Source: Acidimicrobiaceae bacterium
Lineage (GTDB): Bacteria > Actinomycetota > Acidimicrobiia > Acidimicrobiales > RAAP-2
Assembly: GCA_003158855.1 (NCBI GenBank)
Contig: PMLJ01000012.1
Span: forward strand, 1,516 to 65,515
DNA length: 64,000 nucleotides
Direction of reading: 5' to 3'
The notes under the pieces were generated by a model, which searched no databases, was not told the DNA's origin, and saw nothing but the letters and a program-made list of their open reading frames with translations. The position numbers and the translations under genes were made by a program. This document shows positions 5,777 to 64,000 of the stretch, piece after piece; within the stretch, counting starts at the first letter, position 1; every line of letters begins with the position of its first letter.

Positions 5777-7123
5777 TTACGCCCCTTTGATCATGGTCAG
5801 CACTTCTTGCACCCGCTGCTGGCAGGCCGCTTCGTCTGCGGCTTCCACGTTGAGGCGAAGCAGCGGTTCGGTGTTGGACGGGCGCAGGTTGAACCACCAG
5901 GGTCCGTAGTCGGCGGTGATGCCATCGAGCTCGTCGACGCTGACGCCAGCGGCCTTCAACGACGCCGCGATCCTCTCCACGGTCGCGAGCGGGTTCGCCA
6001 CCTCGGTGTTGATCTCGCCCGACGCCGCGAAACGCTTGAACGGCCGGGCCAGCTCGGAGAGCGGAAGCGTCGACTGGCTGAGCATCTCGAGCACGATGAG
6101 CGCGGTGATGATGCCCGAGTCCGCGCGGAAGTTGTCGCGGTAGTAGTAGTGGCCGGAGTGCTCGCCGCCGAAGACCGCATCGGTGTCGGCCATCACCTTC
6201 TTGATATAGCTGTGGCCCACCCGCGTGCGGATCGCGACGCCGCCGGCTGCTTCGATCGACTCCGGCACGGACTTCGAGCAGATCAGGTTGTAGAGGATCT
6301 TGGCGCCGGGGTTGCGCTTCAGCATCGCGGTCGCCACCATGGCCGTGGTCGTGGACCCGCTGATCGGCTGGGCCTTCTCGTCGATCAGGAAGACGCGGTC
6401 GGCGTCGCCGTCAAAGGCCAGCCCCACGTCGGCGCCGGTTTCGAGGACCCGGCGCTGGAGATCACGGATGTTCTCCGGGTTGATCGGATCGGCGGGGTGG
6501 TTCGGAAACGTTCCGTCGAGGGCCTCGTAGATGATCTCGACGTCGAAGGGCAGGTCCCGGAAGATCTCGGGCACGATGAAGCCGCCCATCCCGTTGGCGG
6601 TGTCGGCGACGATGCTGAGGTGGCGCAGGGTGGAGCGGTCGACGAACGAGTGCACGTGGCGCACCCACTCGGCCATGAGGTCGATCTTCTTGTACGGCGC
6701 CGCGTCGCCCGAGGCGGGCTCGTCGTAGTAGGTGTTGGCCATCGCCTCGATCTCGACGAGGCCGGTGTCGACGCCGACGGGCTTGGCTCCCGCGAGGCAG
6801 AGCTTGATCCCGTTGTACTGGGCGGGGTTGTGCGAGGCGGTGAACATCGCGCCCGGCGCGTCGAGGTGGCCCGAGGCGTAGTAGAGGAAGTCCGTTGAGG
6901 CGAGACCGAGGTCGAGGACCTCGACGCCGACGTGGCGCGCGCCGTCGGCGAAGGCTTCGCAGAGGCTCACCCCCGAGGGGCGCATGTCGCGCGCGATGAC
7001 GACCCGGGGGGCGCCGACGAACGTGGCGAAGGCCGATCCGACGGCGCGGGCCAGCCGTTCGTTGAGTTGATCGGGGTAGGTGCCCCTGATGTCGTAAGCC
7101 TTGAAGATGTCAGTTGTGTCCAC
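5777..7123 (-). CDS. manB: Phosphomannomutase/phosphoglucomutase
   Basis: IFKAYDIRG, FTASHNP (phospho-Ser), FDGDADR and GGEHSGH motifs. GTG start at 7123 inferred. Confidence 0.95.
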   Translation of the reverse strand: MDTTDIFKAYDIRGTYPDQLNERLARAVGSAFATFVGAPRVVIARDMRPSGVSLCEAFADGARHVGVEVLDLGLASTDFLYYASGHLDAPGAMFTASHNPAQYNGIKLCLAGAKPVGVDTGLVEIEAMANTYYDEPASGDAAPYKKIDLMAEWVRHVHSFVDRSTLRHLSIVADTANGMGGFIVPEIFRDLPFDVEIIYEALDGTFPNHPADPINPENIRDLQRRVLETGADVGLAFDGDADRVFLIDEKAQPISGSTTTAMVATAMLKRNPGAKILYNLICSKSVPESIEAAGGVAIRTRVGHSYIKKVMADTDAVFGGEHSGHYYYRDNFRADSGIITALIVLEMLSQSTLPLSELARPFKRFAASGEINTEVANPLATVERIAASLKAAGVSVDELDGITADYGPWWFNLRPSNTEPLLRLNVEAADEAACQQRVQEVLTMIKGA

Positions 7124-12416: not shown

Positions 12417-13766
12417 GGGAGCGACCACCGTCGTGCCGATCGGAGAGGTCGGCAGGGTGGTGGTCACGACCAGCGAAGGCTTGGAACCCGTGATGAGCAG
12501 CGTCGCGCCCTTCAACGTGGTGAGGCCGGCGAAGAGCCCGAGGATGCTCTCGGTGGCGTGTGCGCCCAACTGGGTCGAACTCGACGCGCTCTGCTGAGCC
12601 TGCTTGACGATGGTCGTGAATCTCACCGTGATCGCTTTCGACGACGTGTTGGTCACGGTCGCGGCGTCGAAGCCCTTGCCCGAGAAGTCGGCGATCAGGA
12701 AGTCGTTGGAGGGGGCGACCGGTGACGACAGGGCGAATCCGGCGCTCGATCCCACGGCGAGCGACGTGACGACGGCCACGTTCGACGTCAGGTGCACCGT
12801 GGCGTAACCGGCGACGGGAATCGCCGAGTTCGGGGTTATGACGACGTCGCCGCTGCTGTACGGAGCCACGGTCTGGATCTGAGGGGCGACCTTGTAGTTC
12901 GTGTTCGCCAAGCCCACGTTGACGACGACGTCCGCGGGAAACGCGCTGGTGTTCGTGACGCGTATCTGCGCGGTGGCCTGTGAAGCAGTCGTGACGCGGG
13001 GGAACCACACGCTCGTGGACGGTGAGCCGGCGCCGGAGTTGAAGGAGGTCACCGGGCCCGAACCCTGCACCCCGACGATGTCGATCGATCCGCGAAGCAC
13101 CTTCACGTGCACGCCGATGTTGGAGGTATTGACGATCTCGGCGCCCAGGTTGACCTCGAGCTGGGTGTGCGCCGCCACCGCCATGCCCTGGAAGGGCGCG
13201 GGGGCGCCGTAGCCACTCGTCGTGTAGGTGGCGATATTGAACACCGCCGCGGTCGCCGTCGGGTTGTAGATGCTGAGGTGCGCCGAGGAACCGACCGTCG
13301 AGTCAAAGCCGGTGGCGAACCAGTTCGTCACGCCGGCGAACGTACAGGGCGACTCGGCCGTCGCGTTCGCCGCGACTTCCTCGCCCACCACGCCGCCGCC
13401 GTTCACCTGCACGGCGACGGCGAAGTCGTTCCCCTTCGCGAGCGCCTGTGGCTGGACGCTGGCGGTCGCGTGCGCGGCCAGGGTGAGCGACGTCGCGGCA
13501 CGATTGGCGGTGTCCGAGACGACCACGACGTTGAGGGTCCGCGACGAGCTCGTGGTATTCAAGAACGTCACGTGTCCGAGCGCGTCGCCCTTGGCGCCGG
13601 TGAGGCCGGTGCAGTAGAGCGCCGTGGACTCCACGCCCTTGGACAAGGACAGCGACGTTGCCGGCAACGCCGAGTTGGCGGACTTGGACAGCGTGCTCAG
13701 GGTTCCGACGGCGATCAGCGAGACCGCGAGGACCAACAGCAGCGGCGCGCGACGCGGGCTACTCAC
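12402..13766 (-). CDS. DUF5719-like secreted/anchored beta-rich protein
   Basis: N-terminal TM, Cys-containing YCTG and SPC..AG.T.WF motifs, L.IYNP repeat; conserved position after the large GT2 gene. Confidence 0.7.
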   Translation of the reverse strand: MSSPRRAPLLLVLAVSLIAVGTLSTLSKSANSALPATSLSLSKGVESTALYCTGLTGAKGDALGHVTFLNTTSSSRTLNVVVVSDTANRAATSLTLAAHATASVQPQALAKGNDFAVAVQVNGGGVVGEEVAANATAESPCTFAGVTNWFATGFDSTVGSSAHLSIYNPTATAAVFNIATYTTSGYGAPAPFQGMAVAAHTQLEVNLGAEIVNTSNIGVHVKVLRGSIDIVGVQGSGPVTSFNSGAGSPSTSVWFPRVTTASQATAQIRVTNTSAFPADVVVNVGLANTNYKVAPQIQTVAPYSSGDVVITPNSAIPVAGYATVHLTSNVAVVTSLAVGSSAGFALSSPVAPSNDFLIADFSGKGFDAATVTNTSSKAITVRFTTIVKQAQQSASSSTQLGAHATESILGLFAGLTTLKGATLLITGSKPSLVVTTTLPTSPIGTTVVAPLDGG

Positions 13767-16700
13767 CTCGTTCCCTCCTCGCGTGTCGGGCAACGGCGGT
13801 CTTCCGACGTCCCGTGAACAGCCATTCAAGGCGCTGGATCATGCCGAACCCCAGCCAGACGAGGACCCAGAGGATCATGGTGAACAACGCCAGCAGTCCG
13901 TTCAGCGGGAACCGGCGCATCACCAGCTCGGCGGTGGCGCCGGTGCTCACGGCGCCCACCTTGTAGGTCGGGGCCCATCCGTACGAAGTGCTGCGCGGCG
14001 TCGCCTTTCCGTTCACGTCGAGGGTAAACGCGCTCGCCGGGGCGAGGCCGGCGACCACCGTCGCCATCGGGGCCACGGCGCCGGCGTTGGCGGTGCTGGC
14101 GAAGATCGGGGTCCACGCGGAACGGCCGGGCACCTGCTCGGAGACCAGTCCGTGGAACATCGGGTTGGAGTAGACCTCGACGGAGTTGGTCTGCAGCTCG
14201 AGCGCGAGGTCCGTCTGCAGACTGAGGGCCGTGGTGAGGCTCGTCGGCACCGGGCGCAGTGGCACTGACTGCACGCCCGAGAGTTCGGGCCCTGAAGCAT
14301 CCATGACGATGATCGTCGATATTCCCGCACTCGCGAGGAGCTGTCCCAGTTGCACGGTGCGGCCCTTGAGCGCCATCTGCAGCGACGAAAGAAGCTCGTC
14401 GGTCGTCGCGGAGTCCGGCGGCGAGAAGAGGGTGTTCCCCGACGGCAGGCCGTTGGTCGAGGTCGCGGCCTCGAGGCCCGGAGCCACCGACCACCCCTGC
14501 ACGGGAAGGACCGAGGGGTCGCCGAGCCACAGGACCCGGTACCCATTAGCCCCAGCCGGCGCCAGCGCGCTGAGCGATTCGGCGACGCTGGTGGTCGGCA
14601 GGTCGAAGCGGCCGCTCGCGAAGGTCACGAGGAAGGGAACGGTGGCGGCGACGAGGGCTGAAACGATGAGCCCCGCGAACACCTGTCGCCAGCCGAAGCC
14701 GGATTGACGAAGGTCGAGCTCGAGGGCGCTCACCCCGAGCCCGATAAGCAAGGCGATCATCACCGCGTAGAGCGCGAGCAGCATGTCGATGTCGGGGGCG
14801 AACGATCCCATCCAGTGATGGGCGTCGAGGGTGGCCACGATCAACGTCAAGGTGGCAATCGACGCCGCCTTGGTCGCGATGGTCCGGCGTTCGTGGCGAC
14901 AGAGCACGAGACCGAGCACCGCCGCCGCCGGCAGGAGCCACCCGAGCACGTTCGATCCGAACGCCCCGTCCGCACCTCGCAGCATCTCGCTGAAGGTCGG
15001 CGCGGACCACGGTCCCCTCGCGAGGCCGAATACCTCGAGGGCGCGCCGGCCCGCGAGCGCGACGTCGACGCTCATTGGCAGGAGGAAGATGGCCACGTTC
15101 ACCACCAGCGCCCCGAGCAGTCGCCACGGCCGGGCCTGCTCTTGATTCACATCACGTTCGAAGAGGCGCGCCAGCACCACGCCCACGATGATCAGTCCGA
15201 CGAGCACCAGCGTCGCGGGCGCCATGGCGCTCAGCAGCGCAATGATCATGATGGTGCCCATGCGCTGGCCCGCCTCGGTGGCGCGCCAGCCCCGGTGGCC
15301 AAAGGGCAGCGGCTCGGGATAAGGAAGCGAGCGGAACCCCGGAACGCGCAGGAGCTCGAACAGCCTGCGCACGACTGACGGGAAGCCCGCGAGGACGAAG
15401 AGCACGTCGATTCGACCCTGGCTGATCATGTTGAGGCCGAGGGGCAGCGCCATGAAGGCGACCGAGGCGATCACGCGCGCGCGGTTCGAGACGCGGCCCT
15501 TCAAGAGCCGCGCGACGCCGAGCGCCCCGATGGGTATGGACACTATGAGGGCCAGGCGCGGAAGTATCCCCATCCGTCCGAGGACGAAGGTCCCGGCGAA
15601 CCCGAGGACTCCGTAGCCGGGCATTCCCGGCGTTCCCGTCCCCACCCCGTTGGGCGACCACGAGGCGAAGAAGTGACGCCACGTCGTCCACCACGAGTCG
15701 AGCGGCGCGAGCCGGCCAACGAGGGGCAGGTGCATGGCAACGAGGTTTCGCGATCCGATGGCCCAGAGCACGAGCACCGCCAGGACGACCGTCGCCTGCG
15801 AGCGAAACGACGTGAGCACCCGCGAGGGGCGGTTGCGCAGCTCGAGGACGTGGCTTTCGGGGATCTCGTCGAACTCCTCGGCTTCCGAGAACGCGGCCGC
15901 GAAGCCCACGCCCTCGGCTTCGTCGTCCTCGGGCTCCTCCTCGGGCTCGTGCTCGGGGAGGATTCCGCGCGCCCGGTCGAGCCCGTCGCGCAGCAGCGTG
16001 AGGAAGAAGCGCTTCAAGCGGCTCGCGCCGCCAACCTGGAGCCGACGGAGTTCGCCGTCCGAGAGCACCCTGGTCGCCTGCAGTTGTCGACGTCGCTCGC
16101 GGATCTTCTTGCGATTGTGGAAGAGCCATCGCCACGAACCGACGATCGCGCCGATTCGGTCGGTGTCGCGTCCGAGCAGCGCCAGCATGAACTCCATGAG
16201 ATCCATGGCGAGGAGGTAGAAGAGGGTCGAGATGGTGTTGCGCGGGCCCCAGCCGGTGGCAACGACCAGCAGTTGGTGGCGTCGCTGGAGGTCCTGTCGA
16301 CTCGCCCGGCGGGTGCCCACCGCCGAAACCTGGCGCTCCCCGGTCGCGATGGTCTCGCGGTGGGCGACCTTCGCCGACGGCGCCACCACGATGCGCGCAC
16401 CCGCCACCTGGGCGCGCCAGCAGAGGTCGAGGTCCTCGCCGAGCACGGGAATCAGAGGGTCGAAGCCGCGAAGCGTCGCGAAGAGGTCCGAGCGAACCAG
16501 GGTGACGCCTCCGGGGGCGACGAAGACGTCGCGCTCGAGGTCCTGCTGGCCGTGGTCGATTTCGCCCGGCTCCACGCGCTCGTGCGCCACCCCGAAGCGG
16601 TCGCAGGTCTGGCCCACGTGCAGCAGGATGAGCGGATCCTCGTAGGCCACGATCTTGGGCGTGACGATGCCCGCGTTGGTCCGAAAGGCCGCCTCGACCA

Positions 16701-17013
16701 TCATCTGAACGGCATTGTGCTCGAGCAGCACGTCATCGTGGCACAACAGCAAGAACGCCGACCCCTCGACCATCAATGACGCCTCGTTGCAGGCGGTGGC
16801 GAAGCCCTTGTTCTCGTCCAGGATTCGAACAAACGCGCTCGGCGCCACGGCGCTCACCCGTGTCGGAACGTGTTCGGTCTCCCCGTTCGCTATGACGAGC
16901 AGGCTTAGTTCCTCGTAGTCCTGAGCCACCAGCGAAGCCAAAGTGGCTTCGAGGCCGGGGCCAGGACCGGTGGTAACGACGACGGCAACAACGGCCGGAG
17001 CACGAGATTCCAT
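13759..17013 (-). CDS. Glycosyltransferase family 2 fused to a large multi-TM domain
   Basis: N-terminal GT-A fold (LCHDD, GEDLDLCWRA), then an acidic linker, many TM segments and an extracytoplasmic C-terminal region. Confidence 0.88.
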   Translation of the reverse strand: MESRAPAVVAVVVTTGPGPGLEATLASLVAQDYEELSLLVIANGETEHVPTRVSAVAPSAFVRILDENKGFATACNEASLMVEGSAFLLLCHDDVLLEHNAVQMMVEAAFRTNAGIVTPKIVAYEDPLILLHVGQTCDRFGVAHERVEPGEIDHGQQDLERDVFVAPGGVTLVRSDLFATLRGFDPLIPVLGEDLDLCWRAQVAGARIVVAPSAKVAHRETIATGERQVSAVGTRRASRQDLQRRHQLLVVATGWGPRNTISTLFYLLAMDLMEFMLALLGRDTDRIGAIVGSWRWLFHNRKKIRERRRQLQATRVLSDGELRRLQVGGASRLKRFFLTLLRDGLDRARGILPEHEPEEEPEDDEAEGVGFAAAFSEAEEFDEIPESHVLELRNRPSRVLTSFRSQATVVLAVLVLWAIGSRNLVAMHLPLVGRLAPLDSWWTTWRHFFASWSPNGVGTGTPGMPGYGVLGFAGTFVLGRMGILPRLALIVSIPIGALGVARLLKGRVSNRARVIASVAFMALPLGLNMISQGRIDVLFVLAGFPSVVRRLFELLRVPGFRSLPYPEPLPFGHRGWRATEAGQRMGTIMIIALLSAMAPATLVLVGLIIVGVVLARLFERDVNQEQARPWRLLGALVVNVAIFLLPMSVDVALAGRRALEVFGLARGPWSAPTFSEMLRGADGAFGSNVLGWLLPAAAVLGLVLCRHERRTIATKAASIATLTLIVATLDAHHWMGSFAPDIDMLLALYAVMIALLIGLGVSALELDLRQSGFGWRQVFAGLIVSALVAATVPFLVTFASGRFDLPTTSVAESLSALAPAGANGYRVLWLGDPSVLPVQGWSVAPGLEAATSTNGLPSGNTLFSPPDSATTDELLSSLQMALKGRTVQLGQLLASAGISTIIVMDASGPELSGVQSVPLRPVPTSLTTALSLQTDLALELQTNSVEVYSNPMFHGLVSEQVPGRSAWTPIFASTANAGAVAPMATVVAGLAPASAFTLDVNGKATPRSTSYGWAPTYKVGAVSTGATAELVMRRFPLNGLLALFTMILWVLVWLGFGMIQRLEWLFTGRRKTAVARHARRERGE

Positions 17014-23675: not shown

Positions 23676-24701
23676 TCACACGCCGCCCAGGCGCACGTCA
23701 CCCGAGAGCTGGGAATGCGCCTCGACGTGCACGCTGGCCCCCACCACGCAGGTGGCACCCAGGTTTGAAAAGGCGCCGATCACCGCGTGGTGGCCAATGA
23801 TGGAGAAACGGACCTGGGCGTCGTTCTGGATCACCACGCCAGGCAGCAGCACCGAATCCTCCAGCACCACGTTCGCCTTCACCACGCAGTTACGATCGAC
23901 CACGGAGTTGATGAGCGTGGCGCTCGGATCCACGGTGCTCGAAGGATGAATCCAGCACCCGTCGACGACGTCCTTTACCAGGTGATTCCGGAATCTCCCG
24001 AGCAGGAAATCAACATTGGCCTGCAGAAAGGCCTGCGGGGTGCCAGTGTCCAGCCAGTAGGAGTCGTCGGGCATGGCGTAGAGCGTCCCCTCGGCGGCGA
24101 GTTCGGGGAAGGTGTCGCGCTCCACGCTCACCCGCCCCGTTGGAGCGATTCGATCGAGGACGCTGGGCTCGAAGACGTACGTGCCCGCGTTGATGAGATT
24201 GGTCGGCGCCTCGTCACGCGGGGGCTTCTCGACGAAGGCGATCACGCGTCCATCTGGCGTCGTTGGCACGACGCCGAATCGTGACGGATCATCGACCGCG
24301 TGCAGGGCGATGGTTGCCTGCGCGCCGTGGTCGCGGTGGAACTTGATCAGCTTCGTGATGTCGAGATCGGTGATGACGTCGCCGTTCAGCACGAGGAACG
24401 TCTCGTCGATCTCGGCGAACTTCGCGGCGAAGCGGATCGCTCCCGACGTGTCGAGCGGTTCGGGCTCGACGGCGTAGGTCACGTTCACCCCGCCGATCAC
24501 GCCGCTCGGGTAGGCCTCGATGAACTGGTCCGGCAGGTACCCGAGCGCCAGCACGGCGTCGGTGATGCCGTGCTGGCAAAGGGTGTCCATGACGCACTCG
24601 ATCATCGGCACGCCCAAGATGGGCAGCATCTGCTTCGGCGTCTCGTACGTCAGGGGGCGCAGTCTTGTCCCGATCCCGCCAACGAGGATCACGGACTTCA
24701 A
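23676..24701 (-). CDS. manC: Mannose-1-phosphate guanylyltransferase-like NDP-sugar synthase
   Basis: GGIGTRLRPLT..PK, NGD, FVEKP, INAGTY, WLDTGTP and C-terminal hexapeptide repeats. Confidence 0.85.
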   Translation of the reverse strand: MKSVILVGGIGTRLRPLTYETPKQMLPILGVPMIECVMDTLCQHGITDAVLALGYLPDQFIEAYPSGVIGGVNVTYAVEPEPLDTSGAIRFAAKFAEIDETFLVLNGDVITDLDITKLIKFHRDHGAQATIALHAVDDPSRFGVVPTTPDGRVIAFVEKPPRDEAPTNLINAGTYVFEPSVLDRIAPTGRVSVERDTFPELAAEGTLYAMPDDSYWLDTGTPQAFLQANVDFLLGRFRNHLVKDVVDGCWIHPSSTVDPSATLINSVVDRNCVVKANVVLEDSVLLPGVVIQNDAQVRFSIIGHHAVIGAFSNLGATCVVGASVHVEAHSQLSGDVRLGGV

Positions 24702-26869: not shown

Positions 26870-27811
26870 GTGAGAATCTCTACCATCGAACTCTCAATCA
26901 TCATCCCCGCGTACAACGAAGCCGGTCGCCTGGCGAATGGCTACGAGCGCCTGCGTCCGGTGCTCGATCAGATGGACATGGCGACGACCGAGATCATCGT
27001 CATCGACGACGGATCGACCGACTCAACGTTGAAGGCAGCGCACGACGTCTACGGCCACCTCGGCGAGACCTTGTTCGTCCAGCAGCCCCGCAACCTCGGC
27101 AAGGGTGCCGCGGTGCGCCTCGGCATCGCGCTCGCCCGGGGCGCCAACGTCATCGCCGCCGACGCCGACATGGCGATCGACCCGTCGCACCTCCCCGAGA
27201 TAGTCAGCGCCCTCAAGGACAGCCCTCTCGCGCCCGGCTCGCGCACCAGCGACGGGCGGATCAACTACGAATCTGCGCTTCGCACGATCGCCGGCGGCGT
27301 CTTTCACCAACTCGTTCGCCACTACGCCCACACTGACGTGCGCGATACGCAGTGCGGCTGCAAGGGCTTCCAGCTCGGACCCGCCCGCGTGCTGGGCCTG
27401 CTCGGGATGATCGACGGCTTCGCCTACGACGTCGAGATCTTCTTCCTCGCCGACCAGCTGGGCCTCGGGGTCCACCCCGTTCCCGTCGAGTGGGACGACG
27501 TGGGCGGCTCGTCGGTGAAGGTGAGCCGGGTTTCGTTCGACATGCTGAGGGACCTGCGCCACCTGTCAAGGACCCGCTACGAGAATCCCGTCGTCGAGTT
27601 CGCAGCCGACGCCGACGCGCGCGCGATGGGCCTCGCCGCCCGCGAGGCCCGCGTCCAGGGTCTGGCCGTTGCCAGGGGGGAAAGCAATGCGCTGCTCGTG
27701 CTGCCCAGGGACGGCGCGCTCGCGGGGCTCGCCATCGCCGAAGCGATGGACGGAACGCTTCGAACCACGGGCCTGGACGAACTTCGAAACAGGACCTACG
27801 AGGCCGTTTAG
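26870..27811 (+). CDS. Polyprenol-phosphate hexose synthase-like GT2
   Basis: IIPAYNE, DDGSTD, NLGKGAAV, DAD, DTQCGCK and FAYDVE motifs. Confidence 0.88.
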   Translation: MRISTIELSIIIPAYNEAGRLANGYERLRPVLDQMDMATTEIIVIDDGSTDSTLKAAHDVYGHLGETLFVQQPRNLGKGAAVRLGIALARGANVIAADADMAIDPSHLPEIVSALKDSPLAPGSRTSDGRINYESALRTIAGGVFHQLVRHYAHTDVRDTQCGCKGFQLGPARVLGLLGMIDGFAYDVEIFFLADQLGLGVHPVPVEWDDVGGSSVKVSRVSFDMLRDLRHLSRTRYENPVVEFAADADARAMGLAAREARVQGLAVARGESNALLVLPRDGALAGLAIAEAMDGTLRTTGLDELRNRTYEAV

Positions 27812-39880: not shown

Positions 39881-40972
39881 CTATCGAGTGTGGTAATCGA
39901 AGGACGCGATGACGCCGCCGGGCTCCACGTGCGAGCCCTTGCCGATAACGACGAACGACTTGACGAGGGCGTCATCGCCAACGGTGGCGTCGACGGCCTC
40001 GACGGTGCCGACAACGGCGTTCTTCCCGACATGGCAGTCGGTCAGATTGGCGTTCGGTCCGATCCGGGCTCCCCGTTCGACCACGCATCGACCCTTCAGG
40101 ATCGTGCCGGGCAGCAACGACACGTCCGGCTCGATCAGCACGTCGGCGTCAACGTAGGTCTCGGCGGGGTTCCACATCGTCACGCCCAACCTCATCCAGC
40201 CATCGTTGATGCGCTCGCGAAGGGTGCCCTCCGCCTCGGCGAGTTGAGCCCGATCGTTCACTCCCACGGCTTCGCGCGGGTCTTCGAGGAGCATGGAGTT
40301 GGTCTGATGGCCCGCGTCGTGCAGCGAAGCCACGATGTCGGTCAGGTAGTACTCGTTCTGGGAGTTCTGGCGGTTCACCAGTCGCAGGGCTGCGCCCAGG
40401 AGACTCTCTCGCACGACCATGATCGAGGTGTTGATCTCCGTGATCGCCTTCTCGTCGGTCGTCGCGTCGCGCTCTTCCACGATTCGAGCCAGGCTCCCGT
40501 CCTTGGCGTACACCATGCGCCCGTAGCCGAAGGGATCCTCCAGAATCGCCGTGAGCACCGTCAACGCGGCTTGGCTTTCGGCGTGGTACTCGAGCAGCTT
40601 TCCAATGGTGCTGTGGCGAAGGAGTGGGATGTCGCCCGGGAGGATCAGCACGTCGCCGTCGGTCTCGCCGATCTCGTCGCTGATCGTCGGAAGGGCGACC
40701 TTGACGGCGTGCCCGGTGCCCAACTGCTCGGACTGCTCCACGAAGCTGAGCCGGGCGTCGTTACGGCTTCGCTCCTTGAGCGCGGTCTCGACCCAGTTCG
40801 CTTCCTGGCCCACCACGACGACCGTCGCGCGGACCTCGTCGTGCGCGGCGGCGTCGAGCACGTACATGACCATTGGCCGTCCGCAGAGATGGTGAAGGGG
40901 CTTGGGGCGCGAGGAGCGCATCCGTGTTCCCTCGCCCGCGGCGAGGATCACGACGCAGGTCGGTCTAGTCAT
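39881..40972 (-). CDS. glmU: GlmU, C-terminally truncated (uridyltransferase plus partial left-handed beta-helix)
   Basis: LAAGEGTRMRS..PK, QLGTGHA, EINT, EYYLTD and GVNDR motifs; only 363 aa, ending before the acetyltransferase catalytic His region. Confidence 0.9.
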   Translation of the reverse strand: MTRPTCVVILAAGEGTRMRSSRPKPLHHLCGRPMVMYVLDAAAHDEVRATVVVVGQEANWVETALKERSRNDARLSFVEQSEQLGTGHAVKVALPTISDEIGETDGDVLILPGDIPLLRHSTIGKLLEYHAESQAALTVLTAILEDPFGYGRMVYAKDGSLARIVEERDATTDEKAITEINTSIMVVRESLLGAALRLVNRQNSQNEYYLTDIVASLHDAGHQTNSMLLEDPREAVGVNDRAQLAEAEGTLRERINDGWMRLGVTMWNPAETYVDADVLIEPDVSLLPGTILKGRCVVERGARIGPNANLTDCHVGKNAVVGTVEAVDATVGDDALVKSFVVIGKGSHVEPGGVIASFDYHTR

Positions 40973-60202: not shown

Positions 60203-60796
60203 GTGAGCATCGGGGCGTTCCTCGGCATCTTCGCCCTCATGTTCTTGTTGGAGCTTCCCGACAAGACCATGATCGCGACGATCGTGATGAGCACGAAGGC
60301 CCGGCCGACTTCGATCGTGATCGGCGCGTCGGCGGGCTTCATTGTCCAGATGGCGCTCGCGGTCGCGGCGGGAAGCCTGCTCACGCTGCTTCCGGTGCAC
60401 ATCAAGGACTTCATCGTGGCGCTGCTCTTCCTCGCCGGGGCCGCGTATCTGTTCCTGTCGTCCGAGGAAGAGGCCGAGGAGGAAGGAGCCCACGAGGCTG
60501 AAGCCGAGCGGGCCGCCTCTCGTGCGCGCGAGATCGCCACGGCCTTCGCCGTGATCTTCGTCGGCGAGTTCGGCGACCTCACCCAGATCCAGGCCGCCAA
60601 CTTCTCCGCCAAGACCCACCAGCCGCTCGAGGTCTTTCTCGCCTCGTCGCTCGCGCTCGTCCTCGTCTCGTTCGTCGGCGCCTACGGCGGCCAGCTGCTG
60701 CAGCGCGTGGTGCCCCTGAAGAAGATCCGACTCGCCGGCGGGTTCATCTTCGCGGGCCTCGGCATCTACACGCTGGTGAAGCTGTTTGCCTCATGA
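60203..60796 (+). CDS. TMEM165/GDT1 (UPF0016) Mn2+/Ca2+ transporter
   Basis: ELPDKT and EFGDLTQ repeats, two TM bundles separated by an acidic loop. Confidence 0.9.
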   Translation: MSIGAFLGIFALMFLLELPDKTMIATIVMSTKARPTSIVIGASAGFIVQMALAVAAGSLLTLLPVHIKDFIVALLFLAGAAYLFLSSEEEAEEEGAHEAEAERAASRAREIATAFAVIFVGEFGDLTQIQAANFSAKTHQPLEVFLASSLALVLVSFVGAYGGQLLQRVVPLKKIRLAGGFIFAGLGIYTLVKLFAS

Positions 60797-61428
60797 GCCG
60801 GTCCGATGAGCTCCTGGCGTTCGCCGACACGGTGAAGGGCTTCATGCCCCGCGACGAGGGCCTCGCGTTGTACCGCGGCGCCCTCGAGCACGCCCGAGGC
60901 GGCGCGGGCGGAACCTGGCTGGAGGTCGGGGCGTGGTGCGGCAAGTCGGCCGTCTACCTCGGGGCGGCCGCCGAGCAGAACAACGCCGTGCTCTATTCGC
61001 TCGACCATCATCACGGCAGCGAGGAGAACCAGGAGGGTTGGGAGCACTTCGACCACACCCTCGTCGACCCCGTCGACGGACGGCTGAATACCCTCCCCAC
61101 GTGGCAGCGTACGATCGCCGACGCAGCCCTCGAATCGACGGTGATCGGACTCGTCGGGCCCTCGCTCGTGGTGGCGGCCCACTTCGCCCAGCCCCTCGAC
61201 ATCTTGTTCATCGACGGCGGCCACGGCGCCGAGGTCGCGTGGGCCGACTACGAGGCGTGGACGCCCAAGGTCGTCGTCGGAGGACTCCTGATGATCCACG
61301 ACGTGTTCGCGGACCCCGCCGACGGCGGGCGCCCGCCCTACGAGATCTACCTCGCGGCGCTGAAGAGTGGGACGTTCGTCGATCTGGCGAGCGAGGGCTC
61401 GCTGCGCGTGCTCACGCGCGTCAGCTAG
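60793..61428 (+). CDS. SAM-dependent sugar O-methyltransferase resembling mycobacterial MMP 1-O-methyltransferase MeT1
   Basis: GFMP.DEG, EVG..CGKS, DHHHGSEE.Q.GWE, LFIDGGH, HDVF.DP.DGG.PP are colinear with MeT1 as recalled. Confidence 0.8.
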   Translation: MSRSDELLAFADTVKGFMPRDEGLALYRGALEHARGGAGGTWLEVGAWCGKSAVYLGAAAEQNNAVLYSLDHHHGSEENQEGWEHFDHTLVDPVDGRLNTLPTWQRTIADAALESTVIGLVGPSLVVAAHFAQPLDILFIDGGHGAEVAWADYEAWTPKVVVGGLLMIHDVFADPADGGRPPYEIYLAALKSGTFVDLASEGSLRVLTRVS

Positions 61429-62507
61429 CTGGTCCGCGTAAGCGGGCAGCCCGGCTCGAATAGGTCGAGCGGCATGGGAAGCTCGCCGTGGCGAAAGAGC
61501 CCCGCCGCGGGCGACGAGGAGGTCAAGGCGTCGACCGCGAGGATGATCGCCGCCGAGGTGTAGGACGTGGTCTCACGGTCCGGGAACGTCACCACCCCGG
61601 GATAGGCGATGCCCGTCCAGTAGGCGCCGTCTTCGCGCCGGTGGCGTTGGGTGCAGCTGAAGAGGTCGAGCGCCACGTTGTTGAGCCCGAGCCCTTCGAG
61701 GGCGAGCACGCACTCCGCGGTCTCGGCGGCGGTGACCCAGTCGTTGGTCGACACGCAGCGCACCCCGTAACCATCCATGACGTGGCGCTCCCAACCGTCG
61801 CTGATGCGCTTCTCCCCCTCGGCGCCGGTGAGCGCTCCGGAGAAGATCGGGTAGTACCAATCCATGGCGAACTCGTTCTTCGGGGCGAACGCCCCCGGAT
61901 GGTGCGCCACGGCGTGGCCGAGACGGCCCGCGGCTAACTCCCACGACGCCCTCTGGTGGCCGAGTCGTTCCGCGAGCGCCACGGCGCAGCGCAGCGAATG
62001 AAAGATCGATGACGACCCCGTGAGCAGCGCGTAGGCCTCGGGCCGTCCCATCGAGTCGAGCGACCATCGAATCGTGCCGTCATCGAGCTGCCAGCGAAGG
62101 ACCCACTCCGTGGCGCTTTCGACGTACGCCCACATGCTCTGGGCGAAGTCGACGTCGCCGGTGGCGAGCAGGTAGTGGTAGATGCCCGTCGCGACATAGG
62201 CGCACACGTTGGTGTCGAGTCGGGTGTCCTTGACGCTGCCGCCCAGGTAGTAGTTGAACCAACTGCCGTCGCCGAGCTGGGTCGCGGCGAGCCATCGGTA
62301 CGCGGCGCGCGCCTCCTCCTGGTAACCGGTGATCGTGAGGGCCATCGCCGCTTCCACGTGGTTCCAGGGGTCGCAGTGGCCGCCCGGGAACCACGGAATC
62401 TGGCCGCTCGTGACCTGGAGCGACGCCAGGTGCGACGCCGTCAGGGCCACGTCGCTGGCGCTCAGAATTCCCGGCACCCCGGACAGGTGGTTCGTCGAGA
62501 GGCTCAT
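61425..62507 (-). CDS. (alpha/alpha)6-barrel protein (prenyltransferase-like annotation; probable MMP hydrolase MmpH homolog)
   Basis: GHCDPWNH.EAAMAL, QL.DGSW, ALLTGSSSI, FAMDWYYP, WVTAAETAEC motifs; cluster context. Confidence 0.65.
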   Translation of the reverse strand: MSLSTNHLSGVPGILSASDVALTASHLASLQVTSGQIPWFPGGHCDPWNHVEAAMALTITGYQEEARAAYRWLAATQLGDGSWFNYYLGGSVKDTRLDTNVCAYVATGIYHYLLATGDVDFAQSMWAYVESATEWVLRWQLDDGTIRWSLDSMGRPEAYALLTGSSSIFHSLRCAVALAERLGHQRASWELAAGRLGHAVAHHPGAFAPKNEFAMDWYYPIFSGALTGAEGEKRISDGWERHVMDGYGVRCVSTNDWVTAAETAECVLALEGLGLNNVALDLFSCTQRHRREDGAYWTGIAYPGVVTFPDRETTSYTSAAIILAVDALTSSSPAAGLFRHGELPMPLDLFEPGCPLTRTS

Positions 62508-63223
62508 CGCTCGGGCTTCGCCAGGTAGACGATGACCGACTTGCCGATCAGGGGCGCGAGGACCCGCTCCATGTAGCGCGTCGTTCTGGGCGCCTTCATG
62601 ATGTCCCACACCAGGAGGCGGTGGTAGTTCCTTACGAAGAAGTTCTTGTCGTTCTTCGTGCCGACGAGGCACTTCAACCACCAGTAGGGGCTGTGCAGGC
62701 CGTGCGCGTAGTGGTGGCCCGTCACGCGCACGCCCACCGAACCCAGCCGCGCCTCCAGCACGGAGCGGCGGTAGATGCGGATGTGCCCGCCCGGCACGTT
62801 GTGATACGCGTCCGACAGCGCCCAGTTGACCACCTCGGGCCCGAAACGCGGCACGGTGATGGCCATTGTCCCGCCGGGACGAAGCACCCTCGCCAACTCG
62901 CGCATCGCCGCCACGTCGTCGGGGATGTGTTCGAGGACCTCCGAACAGATCACCCGGTCGAAGGTGCCGTCGGGAAAGGGCAGATGCAGGGCGTCACCCT
63001 GCACGGCCGCCGTGTGCAGGCCCGGCGAGGTCAGCTCGCCCGCTTCGAGCATCGCGGCGAACGTCGCCGCCACGCCCTCGACCTCGTCGCGGCCCGCGTC
63101 GAGCGCCACCACGTTCGCCCCGCGCCGGGCGGCTTCGAACGCGTGGCGGCCGAAGCCGCAGCCCAAGTCGAGGATCTTGTCCCCGCTCGCGAGCCCCAGC
63201 AGGTCGTAGTCCGCCGTCAGCAT
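62504..63223 (-). CDS. Class I SAM-dependent methyltransferase (candidate mannose 3-O-methyltransferase)
   Basis: LDLGCGFGRH, GDALHLPF, SEVLEHI, GGHIRIY, HSPYWWLKC; TGATG overlap with the GT4. Confidence 0.85.
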   Translation of the reverse strand: MLTADYDLLGLASGDKILDLGCGFGRHAFEAARRGANVVALDAGRDEVEGVAATFAAMLEAGELTSPGLHTAAVQGDALHLPFPDGTFDRVICSEVLEHIPDDVAAMRELARVLRPGGTMAITVPRFGPEVVNWALSDAYHNVPGGHIRIYRRSVLEARLGSVGVRVTGHHYAHGLHSPYWWLKCLVGTKNDKNFFVRNYHRLLVWDIMKAPRTTRYMERVLAPLIGKSVIVYLAKPER

Positions 63224-64000
63224 CAGTCGAAGTCCACCGAGGCCGGAAGAGGTTCTCCGCTCAGGATGGCGTCGTAGCAAGCGGCCGTGCCGCGCGCCGT
63301 CACCTGCCAGGTGAAGCGTTCGATGACGCGCTCGCGGCCGTTGGCCCCGAGGCGGTCGGCCAGCTCGCGGTCGTCGAGCAGCAGACGGATGGCCTTCACG
63401 AGGGCATCGGGGTTGTTGGGCTCGACCAGCATGCCCGTCTCGCCGCTCGTTCCGACAACCTCGGGCAGCGCGCCACCGGTCGTCGCGACCACGGGCACGC
63501 CGCAGCTCATGGCCTCGATGGCGGGCAACGAGAAACCCTCGTAGAGGCTCGGGACGATGGCGACCTCGGCTTCGCCGTAGAGTCGGGCCAGCTCCTCGTC
63601 GGTCACGCCAGAGATCGTGGTCACGATGTCGTTGAGGCCGAGGCGTTCCATGGTCGAGGCCACGCGCCCCTTGGCCTTGGGCTTGCCGATCACCACGAGG
63701 TCGATGTCGCGCTCGACGCGCAGCTTGGCAATCGCCTCGAGCAGGGGCACCAGCCCCTTCATGGGAACGTCCGAGGAAGAAGTGACCATCAGGCGGCCCT
63801 TCTTCTTCACCACGTCGTCGTAGGGCTTGAAGACCGTGTGGTCGACCCCGACCGGCACGACCGTGAGGCGATCGAGGGGAACCTTCATCTGGGCGTTGAT
63901 GTCGATCCTCGAGTTGTTCGACACCGTCAGCACCGCCGGCAGCTGCTTCACCACCCGCACCTGCATCCGCAAGAAACCGAACCAGCGGCGGGTCGTGAAC
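63223..64000 (-). CDS. GT4 glycosyltransferase (ManT-like mannosyltransferase), 5'-truncated by the window edge
   Basis: RRWFGFLRMQ, SSSDVPMKG, YEGFSLPAIEA; the frame stays open to the window end. Confidence 0.85.
   Translation of the reverse strand, partial: FTTRRWFGFLRMQVRVVKQLPAVLTVSNNSRIDINAQMKVPLDRLTVVPVGVDHTVFKPYDDVVKKKGRLMVTSSSDVPMKGLVPLLEAIAKLRVERDIDLVVIGKPKAKGRVASTMERLGLNDIVTTISGVTDEELARLYGEAEVAIVPSLYEGFSLPAIEAMSCGVPVVATTGGALPEVVGTSGETGMLVEPNNPDALVKAIRLLLDDRELADRLGANGRERVIERFTWQVTARGTAACYDAILSGEPLPASVDFD

Follow-up and report, generated by a model that had tools for sequence, protein, structure and literature searches.

Does a bacterium of the order Acidimicrobiales carry the genes for methylmannose polysaccharide (MMP)? 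This question is raised by one end of a 64,000-nucleotide stretch of DNA from an Acidimicrobiaceae bacterium (contig PMLJ01000012.1; the whole stretch is hereafter called the window), in which an earlier inspection of the letters, the sequence-only reading, had described a complete MMP-like cluster of four genes. Canonical MMP is a cytosolic alpha-(1->4)-mannan, 3-O-methylated and capped by a 1-O-methyl group, with about 11-14 units. The literature regards it as peculiar to mycobacteria, mostly fast-growing ones, and Streptomyces, and the decades-long debate on its function has centered on fatty acid synthase I (FAS-I). The cluster of the window is very probably the Acidimicrobiales version of the mycobacterial cluster for MMP biosynthesis and recycling, inherited vertically; the chemistry of the polymer and its physiological role we infer by analogy.

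The predicted proteins were searched against Pfam, NCBIfam and the sequences of solved structures (PDB). The Pfam and NCBIfam searches gave generic names only for all four cluster proteins, such as Glycos_transf_1 (E 1e-37) for the GT4 mannosyltransferase ManT; for MmpH, all Pfam matches stayed under the threshold. Among the solved structures, the best matches were the MMP enzymes of the mycobacterium M. hassiacum. ManT matched the ManT structure 7qsg (PMC9883506) with 50% identity (E 2.7e-128; about 431-432 bits, the next best structure scoring 92 bits), the hydrolase MmpH matched 7qsj, deposited as 'Methylmannose polysaccharide hydrolase (MmpH)', with 48% identity (E 3.6e-102, 345 bits), and the methyltransferase MeT1 matched 6g7d over residues 4-211 with 51% identity over 208 aa (E 1.2e-62). 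The structures nearest to the putative 3-O-methyltransferase pMeT3 were generic methyltransferases. Because the E-values to the solved M. hassiacum enzymes range from 1e-62 to 3e-128, a chance resemblance of the predicted proteins is excluded.

The comparison with mycobacterial MMP genes that the sequence-only reading had proposed came out in its favor, since all four genes were reciprocal best hits between the window genome and a Mycobacterium-type genome, each outscoring the next paralogue at least 4-fold in bits. The Mycobacterium-type reference locus (L034) encodes an MmpH 85% identical to that of M. hassiacum, and its proteins recovered the window genes as sole or by far best matches in the window genome (pMeT3, 254 bits, next 51; ManT, 388 bits, next 77). 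Taking both directions together, pMeT3 scored 254-273 bits where the next paralogue reached ~50, and ManT 388-411 bits where the next GT4 protein reached 77-98. When the window proteins were compared with six other genomes, the cluster genes scored 269-313 bits (pMeT3) and 375-441 bits (ManT), all the rest remaining at or below 55 and 98 bits, respectively. MmpH and MeT1 are single-copy in all genomes sampled. The gene order ManT-pMeT3-MmpH, with a mostly convergent MeT1, was found in 64 of 69 long loci, and in each of the 64 complete loci the position of pMeT3 is taken by its orthologue.

The MmpH gene, which looks like a prenyltransferase gene, had been taken for a probable glycoside hydrolase, and its product is indeed a homologue of the MmpH endo-mannosidase. 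Its assignment as a squalene cyclase or prenyltransferase was rejected, the SQHop_cyclase_N match being 19 bits and under the cut-off, against 345 bits to MmpH; another weak match, to the oligosaccharide amylase model TIGR01577 (59 bits), was also far under the cut-off. A toroid fold is common to MmpH and the (alpha/alpha)6 glycosidases of GH15 and GH125, while the true family of the window protein is that of MmpH. In NCBI and UniProt, its relatives are named 'prenyltransferase', 'GH15 family protein', 'glycoside hydrolase family 15 protein' or 'hypothetical protein'; the NCBI labels 'prenyltransferase' and 'GH15 family protein' are misnomers, and thousands of database entries so named could be renamed. 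One IMG entry in the protein cluster of Ilumatobacter coccineus is already named 'MMP endo-(1,4)-3-O-methyl-alpha-D-mannosidase'. The gene assignment is plain orthology, already made by one public pipeline (IMG) for one homologue.

As had been noticed, the GT4, methyltransferase and (alpha/alpha)6 genes are coupled on the minus strand by overlapping start and stop codons at each junction: TGATG is common to the stop of ManT and the start of pMeT3, and ATGA to the stop of pMeT3 and the start of MmpH. MeT1, on the plus strand, converges on these three genes (window 60793-64000), and its ATG overlaps, again as ATGA, the stop of a membrane-protein gene (60203-60796). The four genes lie where they had been placed and the cluster is complete, although the completeness of ManT is seen only in the contig beyond the window, where the whole gene (L002 4739-6109, corresponding to window 63223-64593) extends ~590 nt past the window end. 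With ManT read from the contig, the four genes all have intact, full-length frames. The G+C content of the cluster is 0.68, similar to that of the remainder of the window. The palindrome CTAG at 61425-61428 provides the stop codon of both MeT1 (plus strand) and MmpH (minus strand). This overlap leaves zero intergenic room for a terminator, and the two transcripts must overlap or read through mutually; in most other loci the gap between MeT1 and MmpH is 30-80 bp or more.

Conservation of functional residues was judged in family alignments of 64 homologues or loci, the catalytic residues of MeT1 being judged by conservation. The motifs DHHHGSEE..GWE and HDVF.DP.DGG, pointed out before in the convergent methyltransferase, are read at residues 71-84 and 169-179 (DHHHGSEE at 71-78, GWE at 82-84 and HDVFADPADGG at 169-179). 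The most conserved positions of MeT1 over the 64 loci are D71, H72, H73, G75, S76 and E78, and H169, D170, F172, P175 and G179. The alignment of ManT with 7qsg shows the M. hassiacum residue Lys240 and motif Glu313-Gly-Phe-x-Leu unchanged in the window protein (DVPmKG and YEGFSLP), and K279 is invariant in the family alignment. Transmembrane segments were found in none of the four cluster proteins, which supports a cytosolic character of the predicted products.

For M. hassiacum MmpH, Glu262 is the catalytic base and either Asp47 or Asp50 the acid, and the substrate site is surrounded by W49, N101, F102, T163, M215, Y219, E265 and W315 (PMC9883506). D46 and E262 of the window protein align with the putative acid Asp47 and the base Glu262. 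Asp46, Trp48, Asn100, Met215, Tyr219, Glu262 and Glu265 are equivalent to D47, W49, N101, M215, Y219, E262 and E265 of M. hassiacum, and among the 64 homologues each of D46(47), W48(49), N100(101), M215, Y218/219, E262 and E265 is conserved to 97% or more, D46 and E262 being invariant. Apart from the acid and base, six of nine substrate-site residues are identical in the window (W49, N101, T163, M215, Y219 and E265). The position of D50 is occupied by Asp or Asn, with Asn in about half of the family, other classes than Acidimicrobiia included, and therefore D50 is not family-defining. Since Asp47 is invariant while Asp50 is often Asn, the natural variation of the family favors Asp47 as the likely catalytic acid, a point left open in the structure paper (PMC9883506).

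The closest MmpH homologues, with 75-88% identity, were from metagenomes, and the named ones are 'Acidimicrobiales' or 'Acidimicrobiaceae bacterium'. Because the nearest named relatives belong to the Acidimicrobiales, the host, rightly suspected to be one of the Acidimicrobiia, is by these sequence matches a lineage of this order, represented by metagenome-assembled genomes (MAGs) of peat, permafrost and soil. In a locus scan of species-representative genomes, the best 80 of at least 600 matches were inspected. Almost all of these 80 were Acidimicrobiia MAGs, with permafrost (Chersky), bog, palsa and SPRUCE-labelled samples and the MFD and SMAG isolate series among the sources, and Ilumatobacteraceae, Microthrixaceae, Iamiaceae, Sva0996, MedAcidi-G2B and the sponge symbiont Ca. 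Poriferisocius among the taxa. An exact-sequence look-up identified some of the holders: Ilumatobacter coccineus YM16-304 (complete genome), the isolate IMCC26256, Aeromicrobium erythreum and Streptomyces spp.

The prevalence of the cluster was determined in an even sample of the phylum (401 genomes, 248 genera) and in a larger sample of the order (201 genomes, 142 genera). Within the even sample, MmpH was present in 68 genomes and 42 genera: all 23 genomes of the window's order, 2 of 8 genomes of other orders of the class, and 43 of 370 genomes of other classes. MeT1 accompanied MmpH in all 68 genomes, nearly always convergent and within a few kb. In the larger sample, MmpH was detected in 187 genomes (93%) and in 129 genera of the order. 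The claim that the cluster lies outside the taxa known for MMP stands for the Acidimicrobiales, but the cluster is no oddity of this organism: nearly all members of its order carry it, and its occurrence in the phylum at large is scattered.

Some loci depart from the usual arrangement. In two genomes of the same order, MeT1 lies apart from MmpH, more than 1 Mb away or on another contig (G390 and G368), and in Streptomyces-type and some other loci it is found 2-10 kb from the rest; because of these separations, MeT1 is the mobile member of the gene set. In a genome of another family (G138, 75% complete; C1:462051-465926), MmpH shows 33% identity and contains two in-frame TGA codons, while MeT1 is split in two frames; this copy is apparently decaying. 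Acidimicrobiales-type clusters were also found in two MAGs labelled Acidobacteriota or Acidobacteria (L067, JAGWSF010000005.1, and L100, JAGWWV010000001.1), of which L100 branches, fully supported, beside a genome of the Ilumatobacteraceae family as its sister. Both are probably mislabelled or contaminated bins and not evidence for the cluster in Acidobacteriota.

The descent of the cluster was analyzed in a tree of the four concatenated proteins (31 rows, 1218 columns; IQ-TREE with bootstraps), from which ambiguously labelled MAGs were left out. Together with its congener and MAGs of bog, palsa and soil, the window forms a clade with full support. A single branch parts all Acidimicrobiia from the other classes, a split that recurs in 72% of the bootstrap trees. 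The label non-Acidimicrobiia changes twice on a first quick tree and once on the tree without the ambiguously labelled MAGs. The latter tree is compatible with vertical descent of the cluster but does not prove it. A recent transfer from Mycobacteriales was rejected on the G+C content, the Acidimicrobiales nearest relatives, the 93% prevalence in the order and the tree.

The mycobacterial cluster is the closest known system. It consists of MHAS_04402 (ManT), MHAS_04403 (pMeT3), MHAS_04404 (MmpH) and MHAS_04405 (MeT1) in M. hassiacum, and the M. smegmatis genes for ManT, pMeT3, MmpH and MeT1 are MSMEG_6484, 6483, 6481 and 6482 (Ripoll-Rozada 2019; Maranha 2023, PMC9883506). Three enzymes of this set, ManT, MeT1 and MmpH, have been assayed, while pMeT3 is the presumed 3-O-methyltransferase (PMC9883506). 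The window shares with it four one-to-one orthologues in the same order, a convergent MeT1 and cytosolic proteins, and keeps D47 and E262 of MmpH, K240 and the E313 motif of ManT, and the signature motifs of MeT1. In contrast, the window proteins are only 48-51% identical and MmpH carries N, V and Y at D50, F102 and W315, ManT has a ~35-aa N-terminal extension that is conserved within the window's genus, and MeT1 overlaps with its start the gene of a membrane protein. The two systems also differ in distribution, the cluster being patchy in mycobacteria but nearly universal in the Acidimicrobiales, which are without FAS-I.

The sequence-only reading had listed mycobacteria, Nocardia and Streptomyces as the bacteria known for MMP. 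MMP itself has been demonstrated in mycobacteria, and an acetylated form in Streptomyces griseus; Nocardia otitidiscaviarum has a ManT homologue, yet is 'not known to synthesize MMP' (PMC9883506). The published survey covered mycobacteria and eight related genera, and MmpH homologues were named in Corynebacterium, Rhodococcus, Streptomyces and Nocardia (PMC9883506). Streptomyces carry the same four-gene set with 45-60% identity to the window genes, although in the sampled locus (L018) MeT1 lies ~10 kb from the other three genes. The Streptomyces product, acetylated MMP (AMMP), differs in being acetylated, and an acyltransferase gene is absent beside the window cluster. The other polymethylated polysaccharide of mycobacteria, methylglucose lipopolysaccharide (MGLP), is also a cytosolic, helical, methylated acyl-binding glycan with a proposed analogous function; its backbone is of glucose, it is acylated, and the genes for its synthesis are unrelated to those of MMP.

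By analogy with the M. hassiacum enzymes, cytosolic ManT would lengthen alpha-(1->4)-mannoside primers with GDP-mannose, pMeT3 would methylate the 3-OH of the added mannoses, and MeT1 the 1-OH of the reducing end. MmpH would cut mature chains into short oligomannosides that could again serve as primers for new chains. The predicted product is a small helical polymethylated mannan able to wrap acyl chains. GDP-mannose could be supplied by the products of a manB-like and a manC-like gene, as the sequence-only reading had proposed. Both genes are present in the window, but 37-55 kb distant from the cluster; for this distance and for their housekeeping look they were rejected as members of the locus.

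Several observations weigh against this assignment of the cluster to MMP. Among the papers searched, there was no report of 3-O-methylmannose from Acidimicrobiia, and no paper joining methylmannose with Acidimicrobi*. The activity of pMeT3 is unproven even in mycobacteria (PMC9883506). In MmpH of the window, D50, F102 and W315 are replaced by N, V and Y at positions called highly conserved (PMC9883506), and because of these replacements the substrate of the predicted enzyme could differ in detail. The support of the branch uniting the Acidimicrobiia is weak (65/33).

The same four enzymes might make a chemically different, MMP-related polymer, which may deviate in the position or degree of methylation, in chain length or in extra acyl groups. 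The MmpH replacements, of which Tyr at W315 is typical of the whole window order, agree with such a difference, as do the unproven regiospecificity of pMeT3, the identity of only ~50% to the mycobacterial enzymes and the acetylated form made by Streptomyces with the same cluster. However, the catalytic residues and most of those for binding are unchanged, the two motifs of MeT1 do not vary among the 64 loci, and Asn at D50 is widespread in the family as described above. Inspection of the neighboring genes, among which a putative transporter was assigned without a family search, gave no acyltransferase or other tailoring gene beside the cluster. We regard a different polymer as improbable, though it is the most credible of the alternatives. 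Much less probable is the use of the genes for an envelope or exported mannan (a lipoglycan or capsule) instead of a cytosolic acyl-binding polymer. GT4 mannosyltransferases are common in the synthesis of envelope glycans, and the generic family matches include enzymes of exopolysaccharide (EPS) and phosphatidylinositol mannoside (PIM) synthesis; the window has other glycosyltransferase genes (13759-17013 and 26870-27811), and a membrane-protein gene is coupled with that of MeT1. The four proteins, however, are without transmembrane segments, no flippase, polyprenol-linked step or exporter is encoded in the cluster, and ManT is closest to the cytosolic MMP enzyme, with 431 bits against 51-81 for PimA or MshA. 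The membrane-protein neighbor is syntenic only inside the window's family.

That the cluster was gained recently by horizontal transfer from Mycobacteriales or Streptomyces, or is a decaying remnant without a role in this lineage, is scarcely believable. The scattered occurrence of the cluster among mycobacteria (PMC9883506) and the copy with stop codons and a split MeT1 in the genome of another family would be in line with such a history. The cluster, however, is found in 93% of the genomes of the order, the nearest relatives among the matches listed are all Acidimicrobiales (60-88% identity), the Acidimicrobiia stand apart from other classes in the tree, the G+C content is not deviant, and the four frames of the window are intact and full length. 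A vertically inherited MMP cluster of the mycobacterial type agrees best with these results.

In the classical model, MMP relieves the product inhibition of FAS-I through sequestering long acyl-CoAs. The FAS-I hallmark domain PF08354 was found neither in the window genome nor in any of the 101 genomes sampled from the order, the C. glutamicum control being positive, and the window genome contained no open frame longer than 1834 aa. Because this domain is lacking in the sampled genomes (0 of 101), the polymer cannot regulate FAS-I here, and FAS-I regulation was rejected as the role of MMP in the order. As the order is without FAS-I, the polymer would most likely serve as a general buffer for acyl chains or lipids, or in cold adaptation. 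MMP has been linked to cold adaptation, with a mutant phenotype at 15 C (PMC9883506), which also points toward a buffering or cold-adaptation role, and the order-wide conservation agrees with this recent link. The cold-soil origin of the closest relatives of the window is only suggestive of a role in the cold; the Acidimicrobiales, a large group of environmental actinobacteria, inhabit soil, peat, fresh water, sea water and sponges as well as activated sludge (Microthrixaceae included).

It is probable, if less assured than the assignment of the cluster, that an MMP-type methylated mannan belongs to the ancestral and nearly universal cytosolic components of the FAS-I-less Acidimicrobiales. If so, the primary function of MMP would not be FAS-I regulation, and a role as acyl-chain chaperone or in the cold would take its place; mycobacteria would be one of many holders of MMP. 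The occurrence of the four-gene set in 93% of the genomes of an order without FAS-I would decouple the polymer from the FAS-I model, and this order-wide conservation is the part worth following up. The cluster-bearing I. coccineus YM16-304 and the isolate IMCC26256 are tractable, non-pathogenic organisms for such tests.

The coordinates of the cluster and of the other genes named above are listed in Table 1. The NCBIfam matches of both sugar-nucleotide genes remain under the cut-off, that of the manB-like gene (585 bits against 618) covering residues 180-625 of a long open frame.

Table 1. Genes of the MMP-type cluster and associated genes (window coordinates)
Gene	Position	Strand	Description
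MeT1 orthologue, MMP 1-O-methyltransferase	60793..61428	+	211 aa; Methyltransf_24
MmpH orthologue, MMP endo-alpha-(1->4)-mannosidase	61425..62507	-	360 aa; (alpha/alpha)6 barrel
pMeT3 orthologue, putative 3-O-methyltransferase	62504..63223	-	239 aa; class I SAM methyltransferase
ManT orthologue, GT4 alpha-(1->4)-mannosyltransferase	63223..64000 (3' part in window)	-	456 aa whole
Multi-pass membrane protein, upstream neighbor of MeT1	60203..60796	+	197 aa; not a known MMP gene
manC-like mannose-1-phosphate guanylyltransferase	23676..24701	-	NCBIfam NF052502, E 1.9e-90, 303 bits (equivalog cut-off 440 bits)
manB-like phosphomannomutase/phosphoglucomutase	about 5777..7120 (start approximate)	-	NCBIfam NF007088, E 8e-176

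The neighbors of the cluster are genes for an acyl-CoA dehydrogenase, a putative transporter (named without a family search), the membrane protein and an aminopeptidase. The membrane protein is strongly hydrophobic and gave zero matches in the NCBIfam search; no family search named it, and UPF0016/GDT1-like is a tentative label for it. Its gene adjoins MeT1 only in the family-level clade of the window (~18 loci, 46-75% identity) and not in other families. The acyl-CoA dehydrogenase gene (L002 6192-7445, plus strand) lies just past the window end, divergent from ManT, and scores best in NCBIfam against the large subunit of pimeloyl-CoA dehydrogenase (251 bits, under the cut-off). Its position beside ManT is kept in ~12 related MAG loci, the putative transporter gene being next. 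Elsewhere in the window, a GlmU-like protein of 363 aa (39881-40972, minus strand) matches the best GlmU model, 488 positions long, over no more than its first ~354, and the acetyltransferase part at the C-terminus is apparently absent.

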